The translations under genes and the position numbers were made by a program. Positions 1 through 10,732 of a stretch of DNA of 64,000 bases are shown in pieces. The stretch's first letter is position 1; every line of letters begins with the position of its first letter. This stretch comes from Heterodontus francisci (Eukaryota). Under the pieces are notes generated by a model that saw nothing but the letters and a program-made list of their open reading frames with translations, made no database searches and had not been told where the DNA came from. The stretch spans positions 50,190,430 through 50,254,429 of the forward strand of contig NC_090399.1 in NCBI RefSeq assembly GCF_036365525.1. Direction: 5' to 3'.

Positions 1-319
1 TGGGAATTGTTGGGATTGGTTGAAATGCTGGTTTTACACCCGCCTGATTTCACTCTGCAGTGAAGTCACTGAAGATTCACATTGATGGTGGTGTAAAAAC
101 TGTTGTCCCAATCCCGTGGGTTACCTTCCCGACCAGTTCAGTTATAATGATCCCTGATGTCTCTGTGTCCGGTCCTTGTTCAATCAGTCGACAGGGTCGA
201 TACGGAGAAACCATTTATTCTGGTGGCAGAATCTGGAGTGAGGCCATTTTGGAGTGAAATGGAGGAAGCACTTTATCACATAAAGGACAGTGGAAAATTA
301 GGAGCTCCCTCCCCCAAAA

Positions 320-497
320 GACGCTGGATGCTGGGGGTTAAATGACATTTTTAATACTGGGATTCAGAGGTTTGTGTTGGGGAAGGGAAGTGAGGGATAT
401 GAAGGAATGGTGTGGAAATGAAGTTGAGGTACATGTTCTGACTGAATAATGGAATACACTCAAGGGGCCGAATGGCCTGCTCCTGTTCCTATGATCC
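320..497 (+). mobile_element. CR1-clade (HER1-like) LINE 3' end fragment
   Basis: Ends in ggggccgaatggcctgctcctgttcctatg. The same 3'-terminal motif family closes the RT-bearing LINEs at ~3560-3590, ~3690-3728 and ~5395-5446. Start is approximate. Confidence 0.7.
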
Positions 498-498
498 A

Positions 499-518
499 TA
501 CACACACACACACACACA
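499..518. repeat. (CA)n microsatellite
   Basis: About 10 tandem CA units directly after the LINE tail. Confidence 0.9.
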
Positions 519-1004
519 TCATATCCAGTGGATTTAGTGAGCTCGTTGCAGGTCCCAGCATCGTCCCCGCTAATCACGTGTGCGGTTGCTCCATCAGAAT
601 CACGTGGCATATGGTCAATTATCATCATGGAGGTGCGGGGCCTGGTGAATCATGAGGCTGGGCAGGGATGCGAGAGGCCGAATGCAGCGTCGGATCGTTC
701 TGGAGCCATATGGAAAGGCCTGCCTGTCCTGAATTCACTCCTGCCTGGTTTAGCAGTCTGGCTTCCTGAGTGCTCACTGCTGTACCAGGACACCTCCCGC
801 TGCCCCAGGACTCCTCATCCTGACAGAGGCTACATCTCGGCCACAGGCCACTCTCTTTCACAGCTCATCTCCATTAAGTCCACTGAGAGCTGACGGAAGG
901 CTGAGCTATATGGGACAGCCCAGTAGGGGACGAAGGGCTGCCACTAGCAGAACTGTCATGTTGATCTCTCTGAAGTATGACTATCGCTCTCTTTCCACTT
1001 GCAG

Positions 1005-1900
1005 AACAGATGGCCCACAATAGCAGAGAGACATCATGGACTGGTGGAGGAATCCCCGACATTGGACCACTCTCCACAGCTGAGGTGGAGGCACTTGAAC
1101 CAGCAGGGACCCAGGGTGACCACTCAATAGAGGATGGTCAGATAGAGTCACTGGAGTGTCTTCCAACTACATACAGATCACCTCTGGAGACCCACATCTC
1201 ACATGATTGGCATGACCAGATCTGCACAGCTTTAACCCACAGATGTTTGTGTTCTCTCATGCAGGTCGATGTGTGCAGGAGGCTTCAGAAGCAGGGGGAC
1301 AGTGTCTACCTCTGAGGATGAGCAGCATTCTGAGGATGCACTGTCCCAGGACGCTCTGCACTTTCCACCAATGCAGATACATTCACCTCGGTGGGAATCC
1401 GCTCAGCTTTACAATCAGGGTCAGAAGCTGGTGAGAGCACCACACACATGCGCCTGAGCAACTGGGTGAGGCTGAGACAGCCAAGGCCTCTGACAGTCGG
1501 AGGTCTGTGGGTGTCCAGGGCCAATCTGAGCCCCAGGCTGATGATGAGCCTCTGGTGTTGACAACACAGGGCATGCTGGAGTTGCAGAGAGAGGTGAGGC
1601 AACATCCAGTGGAGATGCCAGAGGCAAAGAGCAGCCATGAGTGGACGATTGAGGTGTCCATCAGGCCTTGACTGCTGCCTTGTTTCTGGCATATGAGCGC
1701 ATGTCTTCCTCCATCGAGAGGTTGCTGACCCTCATGGAGAGCCACATTCCACAGATGCGTACAGAACCTGCACACCATCGTCTTGGCCATGAACTCGACA
1801 CAGCAGTGGCAAGGTGAGAGAAGGAGCAGGCACCTGGAGACTTCTCCAGATCCTCGTCCTTCTCTGGTTAGCAGGGAGGTTCCAGTAAGCCTTGGGGGAG
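1005..1900 (+). pseudogene. Harbinger ORF2 (Myb/SANT-like accessory protein) spliced remnants
   Basis: After acceptor ctttccacttgcag (ends 1004) it reads MAHNSRETSWTGGGIPDIGPLSTAEVEALE, resembling the 'HNxRExxxTGGG..P..L..E' motif that follows the trihelix domain in Harbinger ORF2 proteins. A second acceptor (ttctctcatgcag, ends 1264) is followed by an acidic segment (STSEDEQHSEDA) and a coiled-coil-like segment (MLELQREVRQH). Frameshifted. The Myb helices themselves were not clearly recognised. Confidence 0.5.
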
Positions 1901-2149
1901 CCTGACCAGCAGTCTACCTCTAGTCCAGCTGCTCGTGCGGAGGTCACACTGTGTAGAAGCACTCGTAAATGTACAATGAAAACCACACTTGGGGATTCAC
2001 GTCTGTTTGACATTTCAGATTTGTTTTCTCACAATCTTCATTTGTTATTGAAGTGAACTTTCATTGTGGAAAATGATTATTCTATCATGTCTTCATTGTG
2101 AGCTGCTTCTTTCCCCTTCGTGGATGCCAATGTAGGCACAGCCCTCATT

Positions 2150-2734
2150 TCATTAGCATCTCTCATGGACCATAGCGTGTGGTTCAGCTGGGCACCAGGC
2201 ATGGAAGACAAATAGAAAGGTGGGGACAGACAGCGTGAATTTAGCTGAGTCCTTATTGATTTTATCCTGACAGGCCATCATGGTGGCTGGAAGCGGGTAA
2301 GTATGGGATTGCCTCCTGCCTCTTTGCTCAAGGTGCCTGGCCTCCGGTGCAAGGGGTTTAATATCCAGTGTTGCCTGATCATTACCCTTCTCCACACCCT
2401 CCTTGTCGGTGGAGGAGTGATGTTCAATCATGTCCTCACCTTGCACTCTGCAGTGCTTGATTGTGCAGAGCACAGCAGACCTCCATGGTACACAAGACCC
2501 TCACTGGGACATACTGCAGATCGATCGACGCAGTGGAATCTCACCTTCAGCAGCCCAATGGCCTACTCGATGGTCGCTTGGGTGGAGCCGTGGCAAGTGC
2601 TGTATCTCTCCTCCGCTCTGTTGTGAGGGTTGCCCACAGGCGTGAGTAGCCAATGGGCAGTCACTGTCCCGGAGAATCCATCTCTGAAGGAAAGCAGGGG
2701 GACCTGAAGAACTGCGGCACCTGGGACTGTCAAA
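2150..2734 (-). pseudogene. Harbinger (HARBI1-like) DDE transposase, C-terminal part
   Basis: L*QSQVPQFF, WLLTPVGNPHNRAEERYSTCHGSTQATIE*, AIGLLKVRFHCVDRS match the HARBI1 'WLMTP..NP..AEERYN..H..TR..IE..IG.LK.RFRCLD' region. Contains stops and frameshifts. Confidence 0.85.
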
Positions 2735-3728
2735 GCTGTGAGGAGGGTGCAAGAAGACTTCAAAGGGACTTGGACAGGCTAAGTGAATGGGCAAGAACAT
2801 AGCAGATGGAATATAATGTGAATAAGTGTAAAGTTATCCACTTCAGTAGAAAAAAACAAGACAGAGTATTTCTTAAATGGTGAGAGGTTGGGAAGTGTTG
2901 ATGTCCAAAAGGATCTGGGTTTCCTTATTCATGCACTAGCATGCAGGTGCAGCAGCAATTAAGAAGGCGAATGATATATTGGCTTCATTGCAAAAGGATT
3001 TGTGTACAGGAGTAAAGAAACCTTTCTACAATTGTATAGAGCCTTGGTGAGACTGCAGCTGGAATATTGTGTATAGTTTTGGTCTCCTTATCGAAGGATG
3101 GATATACTTGCCATAGAGGGAGTGCAACAGAGGTTCATCAGACTAATCTCTGGGAGGGCAGGATTGTCTTATGAGGAGAGATTGAGGAAAATGAGAGGTG
3201 ATCACATTGAAACTTACAAAATTCTTACAGGACATGACAGAGTTGATATGGATAGGATGTTTCCCCTGGTAGGTGAGTCTAGAACCAGGGGACACAGTCT
3301 CAGAATCAGGGGCAGGCCATTTAAGACTGAGATGAGGAGGAATTTCTTCACTCCGAGGATGGTGAATCTTTGGAAAACTCTACCACAGAGTGGTGGGCAC
3401 CTGGAACGCATTGCCAGCGGAGGTGGTAGATGCGGGCACGATGGAGTCTTTTAAGATGTATCTAGACAGATACATGAATGGGCAGGAAGAAAAGAGATAC
3501 AGAACCTTAGAAAATAGGCGACATGTTTAGAGAGAGGATCTGGATCGGCGCAGGCTTGGAGGGCCGAAGGGCCTGTTCCTGTGCTGTAATTATCTTTGTT
3601 CTTTGTTCTTTGTATATAGGGATCGTGCGTGAAAATGTTGTTTAGGTCAATGATCAGCCATGATTTAATAGAATGGCGGAGTAGACTTGATGGGCAGAAT
3701 GGCCTACTCCTGCTCCTATGTTCTCCTA
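2735..3728 (+). mobile_element. 5'-truncated CR1-clade LINE (RT C-terminus + 3' UTR) inserted in the Harbinger transposase
   Basis: CEEGARRLQRDLDRLSEWAR, DILAIEGVQQRFIRLI..LSYEERL..RGDHIETYKIL..SRTRGHSLRIRGRPFKTEMRRNFF are CR1 ORF2 C-terminal motifs. The tail is ctcctatgttctcctatg. Confidence 0.9.
3388..3613 (+). mobile_element. Second CR1 3'-end fragment nested in the first LINE
   Basis: Repeats the RVVGTWNALPAEVVDA motif immediately after the host LINE's RMVNLWKTLPQ. It has its own terminal motif gggccgaagggcctgttcctgtgctgta and a (tctttgt)n tail. Confidence 0.75.
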
Positions 3729-4500
3729 TGTAGGCATCATGGCTACTTCCCGGGAAGTGGGCACACACCTGCAGGAAAAGCTTTCGGTGTTCGCAGACCA
3801 GTTGAACATTGATGGAATGGAAGTCCTTCCTGTTGATGAAGGTGCCTTGATGGTTACATGTGTACAATCGACCACAACTTGTACCCAGGAATTCCAGTGA
3901 TGGCCCCGAATCTGATAACCCTCTCAGCCTGACTGTCAGGGTTGGTCCTGTAGCACATATAGTCACCGGCCCTCTTGCACATTAGTCATGGATGCAGCAG
4001 TGTGCTGCTGCCTGGGAAACCCCACACATCTCCCCAGTGGATCCTTGGAATGATCCAGAAGTGCCAAAGTTAAGTGCCATGGTGGTTTTCAATGCCACGG
4101 GCATAGGGTGCCCACCAAATCCCATAGGTTGTAACTCGTCCTGCAGCATGGCACATACGCCAGTGATGGCCTGCCTGAAGAACCCTAGTCTTTGCTGACA
4201 ATGCCACTCAAACATCTGGAGGTTGCTGAGTCAAGTCCCGTACACTGTCTGGGGCAGGAGGGCCCTCCTTGGCATGGCCGGCTGCTGTTGCTCTCGTCAT
4301 GGAGCTTTGCGGGCAGGCGCAGCTGCCTCCTGTCTCTCCTTCGGAGGCACTGCATCACCCCCCGGGAGGTGACAAAGACAGGGCAGGAGGCCCCTGCCAG
4401 GTGATCAGTTGGCCTGCTGAGCAGTGTCCTTGCAGATACGAACCTGTCTTGGCAGTTTTCCCTTTGCTGCTTCTCCTGGCAGACTCCCGAATGGCCCTCA
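3728..4500 (-). pseudogene. Harbinger (HARBI1-like) DDE transposase, N-terminal and central part
   Basis: LQMFEWHCQQRL, MPVALKTTMALNFGTSGSFQGSTGEMCGVSQAAAHCCI (helix-turn-helix region) and FINRKDFHSINVQLVCEHRKLFLQVCAHFPGSSHDAYI (NRKG.HS.NVQ.VCD...PGS.HD catalytic region). Frameshifted. Confidence 0.88.
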
Positions 4501-4567
4501 GCACCCACCCTTACTGACAGCCAACTCTCTTACCTTGCAGTATGAGCACCCAACCTTTGATCCAACA

Positions 4568-5446
4568 GTTTGGGGCATGATAAAGAAGTTTGCGGATGAC
4601 ACAAAGATTGGCCGTGTGATCGGTAGCCAGGAGGATAGCTGTCGGCTGCAGGAAGATATTGATGGTCTGGTCAGATGGGCAGAAAAGTGGCAAATGGAAT
4701 TCAACTTACAGAAGTGAGAGGTGATGCAGTTGGGGAGGTCAAACAAGGCAAAAGAATACAAGATTAATGGGAAAATACTGAGAAGTGTAGGGGAAGTGAG
4801 GGACCTTGGATCCCTGAATGCACAGGACAGGTCGATAAGGTGGTTAAGAAGGCATATGGAATTCTTTCCTTGATTAGCCGAGGTATAGACTACAAGAGCA
4901 GGGAGGTTATGCTGGAACTGTATAATTCATTGGTTAGGCCACAACTTGACTACTGTGTGCTGTTCTGGTCACCTCATTACAGAAAGGATGTAATTGCACC
5001 AGAGAGGGTACAGAGGAGATTTATGAGGATGTTGCCAGGACTGGAAAAATGCAGCTATGAGGAAAGATTGGATAGGCTGGGGTTGTTCCCTTGGAACAGA
5101 GAAGGCTGAGGGGAGATTTGATTGAAATATACAACATTTTGAGGGGCCTGGATAGAGTGAAGGTGAAGGGTCTTTTCACCTTAGCAGAGAGTTCAGTGAT
5201 GGGGGGCATAGATTTAAAGCGATTAGAAGAATAAGAGGAGAGGTGAGGAAAAACTTTTTCATCTAGAGGGTGGTGATGGTCTGGAACTCACTGCCTGAAA
5301 GGGTAGTTGAGGCAGAAACCCTCAACACATTCAGAAGGAGTCTGGATATGGACCTCAAGTGCCATAATCTGCAGGGCTAGGGACTAAATACGATGGACCA
5401 ATTGGCCTCTTTTTGTGCCTTAAACTTTCTACGATTTCTATGATTT
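4568..5446 (+). mobile_element. 5'-truncated CR1-clade LINE
   Basis: GMIKKFADDTKIG (RT FADD motif), LQEDIDGLVRWAEKWQMEFN, LYNSLVRPQLDYCVLFWSPHYRKD..ERVQRRFMRMLPGL. The tail is tttctacgatttctatgatttc. Confidence 0.92.
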
Positions 5447-5550
5447 CCGGACAGACTCGTCTGACGCTATTGTCTGGCCCCCCCCCCCCAAGGCTCCATA
5501 CCTGCTGCAAATGCCACACTGAATCCAGCCCATCCACTGGAGTTCCTTAC

Positions 5551-5829
5551 CCCACTGATAGAGTTTGGCCTCTGCCAGGCTGCTGTGATCAATTCGACAG
5601 GAGTATTGATCCTCTTCCCCAGCATTTATTTCAATCTCTTTCTGGATCTGATGAGTCCCATCGTGGTTCGGTCGCACCCCCGAGGATTGGCTCTCAGACA
5701 TTACCTCTCCATTCCTTAGCCAGTTCACCTCAATGTCTACAGGATAAAATCCAGTAACCAGGCAGGAGAGAGTGAGCGGCTTGTACTGACTATTGGGGTC
5801 ACTTCTGGAGATGAACACTTCAGGCTGAA
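5551..5829 (-). CDS. MHC class I heavy chain, alpha3 (C1-set Ig) exon
   Basis: 279-bp phase-1/phase-1 exon with acceptor ttttatcctttcccattacag and donor G|gtaagg. Encodes VQPEVFISRSDPNSQYKPLTLSCLVTGFYPVDIEVNWLRNGEVMSESQSSGVRPNHDGTHQIQKEIEINAGEEDQYSCRIDHSSLAEAKLYQW, with LxCxxxGFYP, the core W, the class I-type RPNxDGTxQ and YxCxxxHxSL. Confidence 0.96.
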
Positions 5830-5952
5830 CTGTAATGGGAAAGGATAAAAACACAAACACAAACAATACACAGACATTGAATGGAACAGGATAATGGATT
5901 CATAGATCAGTGATGTTAGATCAGAACATGGGGTAAAAACTGAAATCAATAC

Positions 5953-6228
5953 CTTTCCTTTCAAAATATTCCTTTCCAGCTCGCAAATATCTCTTTAAAT
6001 AGTCAACAAGGTCGACCTCCAAATTCCATTTCCAATACTTGTTCCAGGATTCATCAGAATTCCATTTCTCCTTGGTCTTCACTGCAAGGTGATTGGTTGT
6101 GACCCATCTCATTCTGTCTGGCTCTAAACTAATATAGTCCTTTCCATCATAACCAAATCGCATCGATATCTTAATGGAGCCTTCATCAGTGATCTCAACA
6201 GTCCTGATCCATTGGAAAGTGTGAATTC
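5953..6228 (-). CDS. MHC class I heavy chain, alpha2 exon (nonclassical; lacks both canonical Cys)
   Basis: 276-bp phase-1/phase-1 exon with acceptor ctgttttgtcactgacag and donor G|gtattg, followed by a 123-bp intron (5830-5952) to alpha3. Encodes GIHTFQWIRTVEITDEGSIKISMRFGYDGKDYISLEPDRMRWVTTNHLAVKTKEKWNSDESWNKYWKWNLEVDLVDYLKRYLRAGKEYFERK, with HTxQ, GYDGxDY, TKxKW and LKRYL motifs. Confidence 0.95.
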
Positions 6229-6344
6229 CTGTCAGTGACAAAACAGGAATCAATAACTAATAGTTAATATCAAATCACAAGCACTCTCATCAGAGAGAAA
6301 TGGGATCTATTACCTGGCAGAAATAGGGGGTGGGGGGTGTGGTT

Positions 6345-8071: not shown

Positions 8072-8763
8072 CGGAAGAGAGAGAGCTGAAGCGGCTTGAG
8101 AAAGCATCACCAATATGGAGGAGTATAATTCAGGGCTGGGTACAAAATTGCTGAAACTCGCTCAATTAATTCCAAAATTCAATGAGGAAGATGTGGAAGA
8201 GTTTTTCATGTCCTTCAAGAAACTGGCGAGGCAACTACAATGGCCAGCTAAGACCTGGTCTCTTTTACTACAAAGCAAACTAACTGGAAAAGCCCATGAG
8301 GTTTATTCCTTACTGCCAGATGAGAGTTTATCAATTTATGAACTGACCATAAGTGCTATCCTCAGGGCATATGAATTAGAACCCAAAGCCTATCACCAAA
8401 AGTTTGGAACCATCAAAAAGCAAGCTAATCAAACTTATCTGGAGTTTGAAAGAAGCAAGCAGCTTGATTTGACCAATGGCTTTAAAAATAAAGCTCAGCT
8501 ATGAGACTCTCAGAGAAGTAATCCTGTTAGACCAATTTAAAAACTCCCTCCCATTCTCAATAAAAACCCATGTAGAGGAGCAGTGGGTTCAGGGAGCCCG
8601 GCAAGCAGCCGTTCTGGCTGATGAATTGCTTTCATCTACAAGTCCGTTTCCCAGGGGAGAACCTTTCCTAATCACCCCCACAAATCCGAAAAGGACAAAG
8701 GGTGGGAAGTTGAAATCCGCCCAGACAGTCCTGAAAGAGAAAGGAAAGCAAGAGACACAGGGA

Positions 8764-8788
8764 CCCCCCCCCCCCCCCCCCCCCCCCC
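8764..8788. repeat. poly(C) tract (~25 nt)
   Basis: Homopolymer run inside gag. A second C-rich run lies at ~9376-9395. Confidence 0.85.
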
Positions 8789-10732
8789 GCCCACCTCCAG
8801 CCAAAAAGGAAGGTGCTGTGAGCACGAGTGAGACTCGGAGACCTGTGTCCTTCCATTGTAATAAGGCAGGGCATTTAAAAGTTGACTGCTGGAAACTATA
8901 GGGGAAATCGGTAGGGTTAATCAGGGCACACCTGCTCAGTGAAGACGAGGGCCTGATAGAAAACACAGAATGGGCTGTGGCTTTAACTGCAGTGAGGGTG
9001 CAACGCAGGAAGCTTACTACGGCCAGTGCAGGAAAAGTTAATAGGATTACTGAAGGTTATCAGGATTTGTGTTTGAAGGGAAAGTAACCCCACATATTCC
9101 TCAATTGGGACAAGGAAGCCCAGAGTGATTCTCAGGGACATGGGCGACTGGATCCCTTTTACTGGGAAAAGGCCTGATCTTTCCCCCAGAGAGTGCAGTG
9201 AACACCAAAATGGTGGTGAGTGGTCTTGGAGGACAGTGTACCTGTAGACTGAGTGCACTTGGAATGCGACCTGGTTTCGGGTCTGCTGAACGTAGGGATT
9301 ATCCCTAGTTTTCCTGTGGACGGGATTGACCTGTGCCCTAAGATAATGATCTGGCAGGGGTGAAGGTGGTTGCCTCCCCCCCCCCCCCACCCCCCAGTAG
9401 TGAAAGAAAGACCACAGGAGGTCAGAGAGACAGGGCAGTGGCAGGAGACGGACCCCTGCAGTTTCCCTGAATGTGTAGTGGATCAGGCCATGATCAAACC
9501 AGCTCCCCCAGAGGAGACTGAATTAGTACTGCAGGCAGATGACCAGGAGGTCTGTCTGTCCAAGACTTTCTTTGGAAAACTGGGAGACCCTGGGAAAGAA
9601 TTAAATGGATTTTTCCTAGCTGAGGCTCAGCGAGCTGACCCAGTATTGTGAGAGTTAGCACAGGCTGCCCAGTCTGAAAGTGAAGCAGAGGGAGTCCCTG
9701 ATTGCTACTATTTAATGAATGAGGTACTGATGAGGAAATGGAGTTCTCCTCACAGACCTGAGGGCCAGGAGTTGACAGTAGTTCACCAGTTAGTGGTGGC
9801 ACAGAGGTACCGGGGAGAAATATTAAGAAGGGCTCACATGACTACAGTGGTTGTACATGCTGGTTTACAAAAGACCAAAGCTCGCATACGACAGCATTAT
9901 GACTGGCCAAAATTTCAAAGGTGTGGTGGAGTCCTGCAGGAGTTACCACCTGTACCACGTTGAGGGCAATCCCCAACCTACAGTGAAACTTACACCGCTA
10001 TTTCCTGTACCGGTGTTAGGAGGACTCTCCAATAGAGGGCTGGTGAACCGTAAGGGACCCCAGCTAAGAACAAAAGGGGACAGGCAGGCACATGGCCATC
10101 AAAAGTTTAGAAAGAGAAGGGTATAAAATGACCCAGAGGGTAGGTTAAAGGAAGTCCGGGAGGAATCCCAGATGAAAACAATGACTGTCTGGTCAACCAA
10201 CCCTGAAAAATGTGAAATGTTAGACCCCACAACCTCCTATGTAAATGCAGACTCTAGAAGCACCCACCAAAGATGCTAACAGCATTTACAGGAACCTACA
10301 GAAACAAAGAGAGACCTCTAGGGGTCAGAGAAACCATGAGGGTGATGCCTCAACTAGTGAGAATGCAGTTAAGGCTGCACAAATATCTGCAGGTAGCCGT
10401 GTCCAGAGAACAAAGGGGACAGTAACAGAGACTCCTCCCCCACAGTCAGAGGAAAAGGGAACCACCCATCCCCTGAAGACAAAAGTCTTTCCATGAATCA
10501 GGGAGTTCAGGATAGACCAGCCCCCCTACTTACTCTCCTGGGAACAAAGAGACAATCAAAGCAGCCCTGGCACCCAGAACAGCCCATTTTTAATGAGCTT
10601 TAAGATTGGTGAATGAATGGAAATGAATGAGAGAGATGCATGAGCTTTTTTCTGTATTGTATATTTCTCTCAAACTCTGTAAAGAAATGCACAACTTTCC
10701 TTCAAATCACATTTCATTTCCGGGTGAGGACA

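Follow-up and report, generated by a model that had tools for sequence, protein, structure and literature searches.

An intact, spliced MHC class I gene of the horn shark, likely UEA, whose alpha2 domain lacks both disulfide cysteines

The disulfide bond between C101 and C164 of the alpha2 domain is regarded as necessary for class I molecules to fold. According to PMC6926029, this bond is located at the A pocket, where it lies between the alpha2-2 helix and the sheet, and HLA-A*02:01 deprived of it no longer engages TAPBPR. Efficient folding without the bond is therefore not guaranteed. The window analyzed here, a stretch of 64,000 nucleotides of the horn shark (Heterodontus francisci) genome, contains a class I alpha2 exon (5953..6228, minus strand) in which no cysteine codon is present. 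This raises the question of whether such an exon still belongs to a functional gene, from which lineage it comes, and how a groove can be built without its staple. Taken together, the results make it probable that the exon is part of an intact, spliced nonclassical class I gene, likely UEA, with a groove that likely no longer clamps the N-terminus of a peptide.

The exon is 276 nt long, in phase 1/1, with AG/GT borders, an open frame and contig cover, and its translation matches the Pfam family MHC_I with an E-value of 2e-16. In an alignment without gaps to 7cpo_A, C101 is replaced by valine and C164 by leucine. The corresponding codons, both on the minus strand, are GTT (6197..6199) and CTT (6008..6010), each separated from TGY by two changes, and the same letters are found at both codons in transcript-like contigs. 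Alignment, Pfam match and codon reading thus bear out what the preliminary description had noted, namely V101 and L164 in an exon free of cysteine, at least two substitutions between each codon and TGY, and a stop-free frame between canonical splice sites; the coordinates that it gave, with the strand unstated, are the exact ends of the exon on the minus strand. That the missing cysteines are due to chance or to an error of assembly was considered and rejected, six of six close copies in the genome being without both.

Around this exon, the leader, alpha1, alpha2, alpha3, transmembrane (TM) and first cytoplasmic exons were located, all with canonical splice sites, in the class I order leader-alpha1-alpha2-alpha3(C1)-TM-cytoplasmic and with phase-1 introns. 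The leader exon (G000:C29 50280462) lies 22 kb beyond the alpha1 exon (G000:C29:50257852-50258113), itself 3.4 kb past the window end, and most of the 61,194-nt alpha1-alpha2 intron fills the window from 6229 to 64000 (minus strand). Downstream of alpha2, still on the minus strand, a GT-AG intron (5830..5952) that is near-identical in the six copies of the genome measures 123 nt here vs. 117 nt in the other five. It is followed by the alpha3 exon (5551..5829), an Ig C1-set domain with both cysteines and 95-99% identity among the six copies, and by part of the 5.6-kb alpha3-TM intron (1..5550). The intact TM exon, one codon shorter than in the paralogs, extends from G000:C29:50190332 downwards, just outside the window and some 100 bases from its start, and the first cytoplasmic exon is found about 0.7 kb beyond it, outside the window, both on the minus strand. 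Over alpha2, the gene is 100% identical to a public protein (P0003), a horn shark class I-like protein by its source name. The P0003 model terminates in a non-TM exon (window 4533-4646, minus strand) within a retroelement-like fragment, which is probably a modelling artefact or a minor isoform.

The length of the alpha1-alpha2 intron is mostly that of a tandem array of a 58-bp motif, running from 11524 to 64000 and about 2.3 kb past the window (L057:3454-5790), with 890 copies from 12055 alone. Although this array of about 55 kb occupies most of the intron, the intron is spliced. With only 26 occurrences of the motif in the corresponding intron of one paralog (C29:50.133 Mb), the array is greatly expanded in the present copy. 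The same intron holds broken fragments resembling LTR elements (window 8100-9960), with SCAN and integrase H2C2 matches. Transposon frames near the exon are short, with at most 179 aa from stop to stop within the first 13 kb, and of seven such frames compared with Pfam two matched (SCAN, Integrase_H2C2) and five did not, in agreement with the initial impression that the neighbouring transposon ORFs are shattered.

Evidence of expression was obtained from contigs of four runs, representing two samples (X1 and X2 being one, X3 and X5 the other) and two studies; none of these runs is recorded as RNA, and splicing was read from the contigs themselves. The contigs cover the alpha2 and alpha3 exons with zero depth over the intron between them, and one contig omits exactly the 123 nt of this intron. 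The join of alpha1 to alpha2 across the 61-kb intron is likewise visible, the loose ends of contigs at 6229 running into the end of alpha1. Contig pieces show no mismatch to the present copy over 6122-6229 and 5953-6055, whereas the five paralogs differ from them at 10-14 and 16-23 places, respectively. Hence, it is the present copy itself that is transcribed and spliced. A contig from a second organism spans the exon with eight differences; the six that are listed all fall at third codon positions and, as read by eye, five are synonymous and one is D163E, with none at codons 101 or 164.

The genome search yielded 35 alpha2 matches, of which 30 were fetched and the five weaker ones left out. 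Among the 30 loci fetched, six alpha2 copies that are 70-100% identical lack both cysteines, and the other 24 have both (23 by alignment and one by hand reading). In the six copies, position 101 is invariably valine encoded by GTT, while position 164 is L, L, L, L, F and S, the codons of the paralogs being CTT, CTT, CTA, TTC and TCT. The alpha2 dN/dS of the present copy against the five paralogs ranges from 0.33 to 0.65. The six copies (L001-L006) are scattered over 3.3 Mb, yet their alpha3 exons and alpha2-alpha3 introns are almost identical, and the mean dS is 0.67 in alpha1, 0.27 in alpha2 and 0.05 in alpha3. The low dS of alpha3 together with the near-identity of the short intron indicates that the 3' part of these genes has been homogenised, with the groove domains remaining distinct. 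For the copy at C29:50.31 Mb no alpha1 turned up, and an alpha1 exon of the family was observed on a separate contig (L033, G000:C130:771001-771261), possibly following an assembly break in a long intron.

Two further observations concern other class I loci. Near-identical leader peptides occur in UDA and in the V101 family, in contrast to their alpha2 domains with an identity of only about 27% (L055:804-854, G000:C29:50091283; P0113, P0114, P0121, P0019); within sawshark, a two-residue leader variant is common to both lineages, which suggests leader-exon conversion between them. Besides, ten near-identical loci (L008-L017, with 0-3 residue differences in alpha2) at C29:57-63 Mb and on three small contigs, which may be a recent amplification or uncollapsed haplotypes, resemble by eye the 'UAA-2' row in the PMC10751288 supplement.

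Relatives of the exon were collected by two word-based protein searches, one with 66 matches and one with 120 listed of 441 matches. Among the matches listed, relatives come from galeomorph sharks and two squalomorph genera, and no ray or chimaera name appears among the 66 or among the 120 listed of 441. From 121 proteins, 105 alpha2 alignments reached an identity of 50% or more, among which there are 83 distinct, complete domains, with 2-13 distinct family rows per species in 13 species. C101 is absent from all 83 domains (V in 78, A in 3, L in 1 and I in 1). At position 164, 11 residue types are found (L 27, F 22, C 8, Y 8, S 7, G 4, D 3, and one each of W, T, V and H), and with 2.68 bits this site is the third most variable of the 91 alpha2 sites. 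V/L is the commonest pair at 101/164 (25 of 83), the other 58 domains having other pairs, including V/C (8), V/S (7), V/G (4) and V/D (3).

Trees of 77 family and six outgroup rows, six of the 83 domains being left out for lack of a usable alpha1, were built with quick IQ-TREE and FastTree runs on genes that recombine. In the quick tree, the family forms one clade with an SH-aLRT of 100, and at least three clades unite squalomorph and galeomorph rows. On the FastTree topology, the loss of cysteine at 101 requires a single change and all states at this site require three; at 164, all states require 23 changes, and the presence or absence of cysteine requires six, a count in which parsimony does not separate retention of C164 from its regain. 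F, Y, S, G and W, which make up 42 of the 83 residues at 164, are single-base neighbours of cysteine codons, leucine is one step from phenylalanine, and TTC and TCT are seen at this codon in the genome paralogs. The single change at 101 against six at 164, along with these single-base neighbours, is what one would expect if C101 had been lost first and the unpaired C164 had then changed many times. Eight members combine C164 with V101 (P0001, P0013, P0045, P0048, P0056, P0057, P0063, P0065); in seven of them it is the sole alpha2 cysteine, i.e., a free thiol near the groove end. The age and constraint attributed to this nonclassical lineage in the preliminary description are in line with the alpha2 dN/dS and with the spread of the family over squalomorph and galeomorph sharks.

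The loss of the bond is accompanied by that of the residues surrounding the A pocket. The anchors of this pocket, invariant in the six outgroup rows, are kept in none of the 77 family rows for Y7 and W167, in 16 for Y159, in 28 for Y59 and in 56 for Y171; in the present copy, Y7 is replaced by L, Y59 by H, R84 by S, Y159 by N and W167 by Y. Residues on the C-terminal side are better kept (T143 in 57, K146 in 70 and W147 in all 77 rows), W147, W152, W156 and M114 are near-invariant and W97 is common. H93, Q96, D119, G120 and D122, which we take to be the usual beta2m-contact residues, are kept in 75-77 of the 77 rows. An AlphaFold2 (AF2) model of alpha1-alpha2 reached a pLDDT of 91 and superimposes on the fish class I structure 6lbe_A with a TM-score of 0.93 and an rmsd of 1.6 A, whereas the full-length model gave a TM-score of about 0.52 and an rmsd of 7-8 A, probably owing to a misplaced alpha3 in the absence of beta2m and to a disordered tail. 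Because a class I fold is returned for nearly any class I-like sequence, the predicted fold says little on stability.

From these elements, a working scheme can be proposed. A single change of C101 to valine would have taken place in an ancestral shark, possibly preceding the split from dogfish UCA, and V101 may keep a buried packing role beneath the alpha2-2 helix. The orphan C164, once released, would have been changed repeatedly, mostly to residues one base from cysteine, and the residues anchoring the peptide N-terminus would have been eroded along with the disulfide. For the platform, normal folding and pairing with beta2m in a surface molecule are nevertheless predicted. Its groove, presumably lined on the alpha2 side by the near-invariant W97/M114/W147/W152/W156 and thus aromatic in its middle, would likely hold a non-canonical ligand, either a hydrophobic/aromatic one or a peptide fixed at the C-terminal end alone, and the unstapled helix 158-173 likely confers specificity for a ligand or receptor on each paralog.

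In contrast with this scheme, the variability of the groove end might reflect a relaxed constraint only. No ligand would then occupy the A-pocket end, the groove being empty or the molecule serving as a receptor ligand, and positions 99, 158-173 and 164 would vary by neutral drift and gene conversion. In the family, the variability of the segment 158-173, picked after the entropy profile was known, is 2.0 times that of the remaining alpha2 sites, vs. 0.88 in 14 disulfide-keeping alpha2 domains of the genome. Among non-independent pairs of the six paralogs, groove sites have a pN/pS of 0.89 vs. 0.53 elsewhere; this value is below 1, as a relaxed constraint would have it, no dN/dS above 1 was found among the six paralogs and positive selection is not demonstrated. 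The segment 158-173 is elevated in synonymous divergence as well (0.44 vs. 0.16), so that selection accounts for its variability no better than old conversion tracts or relaxed constraint do, and the contrast in dS between alpha3 and the groove domains points to frequent conversion. However, subclades common to squalomorph and galeomorph sharks hold their own residue at 164, and alpha1 and alpha2 resist the homogenisation seen in alpha3, which suggests that distinct grooves are maintained. We consider pure relaxation possible, if rather unlikely. Speculative, and doubtful as it stands, is the proposal that the whole A-pocket end has been dismantled (the disulfide together with Y7, Y59, Y159 and W167) and that the unstapled alpha2-2 helix (158-173, including 164) serves as a paralog-specific specificity cassette, whose distinctness is maintained across shark orders whereas alpha3 undergoes homogenisation. 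If this were true, the groove would be open-ended, naturally free of the disulfide and destined for a new class of ligand, and the lone C164 found in 8 of 83 members might allow dimers to form or a ligand to be bound covalently.

The preliminary description had instead viewed the aliphatic pair as a coordinated replacement, in which a selected V101-L164 hydrophobic contact takes over stapling from the disulfide. Indeed, V/L is present in this copy and in four of the six genome copies and is the commonest pair of the family, there are several shark-wide subclades in which 164 remains L or F, and the AF2 model is confident around both residues. Against this stand the 58 of 83 domains with other pairs, among them those with cysteine, serine, glycine or aspartate combined with V101, and the 23 changes at 164 vs. 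three at 101. At the level of the family, a coordinated swap is largely refuted and this explanation is improbable; the loss of C101 followed by the release of position 164 accounts for the pattern under the reading preferred here.

The lineage of the gene was then considered. PMC10751288 describes a multicopy UEA beside a single-copy UDA, in an MHC-Ib cluster between brd2/b2m and hsd17b8/rxrb, and UEA is multicopy also according to PMC12562908. In the horn shark genome, the family likewise counts six alpha2 copies, and the distance between a UDA-like exon and the nearest Cys101-less copy is 26 kb. The flanking genes were placed from the white shark, in which the relative LOC121291255, fused to UDA in its gene model, lies at 80.1 Mb, with B2M at 78.3 Mb on one side and HSD17B8 at 84.1 Mb on the other, i.e., in the interval from B2M/BRD2 to HSD17B8/RXRB. 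UEA is reportedly found in sharks and absent from rays and chimaeras; it is also said to comprise three sublineages related to dogfish UCA, to have a very hydrophobic groove and to be without the invariant peptide-anchoring residues.

A published sequence with the same features can be recognized in Supplemental File 10 of PMC10751288, where the nurse-shark row 'Gcirratum_UCA_NODE_26056' has V101/L164. By an eye count made outside the tree, this row is identical to the present gene at 65 of 91 alpha2 positions (71%) and 79 of 93 alpha3 positions (85%), and in that study it served as a query for a 'previously reported' lineage. The string 'UEA' does not occur in the supplement. We consider it very likely that 'UCA' serves in this row as a working name of UEA and that the present gene is a UEA member. 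The gene is then very probably a new member of an already described lineage, with the missing cysteines visible in published sequences, and the novelty suggested at first probably does not hold, since a published Cys-less nurse-shark sequence closely resembles the exon by eye. A lineage of its own, undescribed and apart from UEA, or else the UGA lineage, is hardly to be expected. The former may draw on the fact that the comparison had no sequence explicitly labelled UEA; it is at odds with a multicopy family that adjoins UDA, exactly the place of UEA, and with the use of the matching nurse-shark sequence as a lineage query. The latter had been put forward as a possibility in the preliminary description and was rejected: in the PMC10751288 supplement, both alpha2 cysteines are present in three of three UGA and two of two UFA rows, as well as in the UDA, UAA and UBA rows, and the UGA-like exon of the horn shark genome itself (L030) is a separate locus with both cysteines, 33% identical over the aligned part.

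Two other assignments were also rejected. Identity with classical UAA does not agree with V101/L164 and with L7, H59, S84, N159 and Y167, and membership in dogfish UCA does not agree with an alpha2 identity of about 35%, by eye, to the AF515705 row of the PMC10751288 supplement. In the same Supplemental File 10, a very divergent ray row named 'UHA' apparently lacks both alpha2 cysteines as well. A full-text literature search, with a scope outside of which the primary UEA/UDA papers (Almeida 2021, 2020) fell, found no passage on the loss of the alpha2 disulfide in UEA, UCA or UGA, and the asymmetry between a fixed position 101 and a free position 164, with the matching loss of A-pocket residues, may be less remarked.

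Finally, the decay of a single copy into a pseudogene, to which the satellite of about 55 kb inside the alpha1-alpha2 intron and the non-TM terminal exon of P0003 (window 4646-4533) might point, is most improbable, as the preliminary description had also held, given that all located coding exons are intact, TM included, that copy-specific spliced contigs join alpha1 to alpha2 and alpha2 to alpha3, that the listed differences of the second organism's contig fall at third codon positions and that C101 is missing from the whole family. The feature is therefore real, old, expressed and family-wide, in a gene that is ordinary for its family and whose freed groove end is unusually variable. A shark-wide, expressed, multi-copy family without the bond represents a natural experiment in which a groove is built without its staple, and the missing bond offers a concrete handle on the function of the lineage.

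Compared with classical class I molecules (UAA, HLA-A2) and MR1, the gene has the same predicted platform fold (TM-scores of 0.88-0.93) and keeps T143, K146, W147, the N86 glycan motif and the alpha3 disulfide, but it differs in the absence of the alpha2 disulfide and in the replacement of Y7, Y59, R84, Y159 and W167. The many MR1 structures among the matches reflect the content of the PDB and the fold rather than a demonstrated function. Chondrichthyan UGA/UFA, which are CD1-like and, in PMC12562908 citing a personal communication, reported lipid binders, are likewise nonclassical and MHC-linked, a UGA-like exon lying about 0.4 Mb from the present cluster. They differ in that C101 and C164 are kept and in that, according to the same source, they are single or low copy. 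Spiny dogfish UCA (AF515705 row of the supplement) likewise lacks both cysteines (V101/V164) and has W152/W156 in common with the present gene; its alpha2 domain, with only about 32 of 91 positions identical by eye, makes it a sister lineage at best. The closest counterpart is UEA (Almeida et al. 2021), for which the nurse-shark row is the likely representative. The present copy departs from this reference by its 61-kb alpha1-alpha2 intron and its TM exon one codon short, the row is labelled UCA with the name UEA inferred, and the alpha1 of the row is closer to the paralog P0016 than to the present gene. The row and the present gene nevertheless have V101/L164 in common, the names among the family matches listed are those of sharks only, and UEA, like the family, is multicopy and adjoins UDA.
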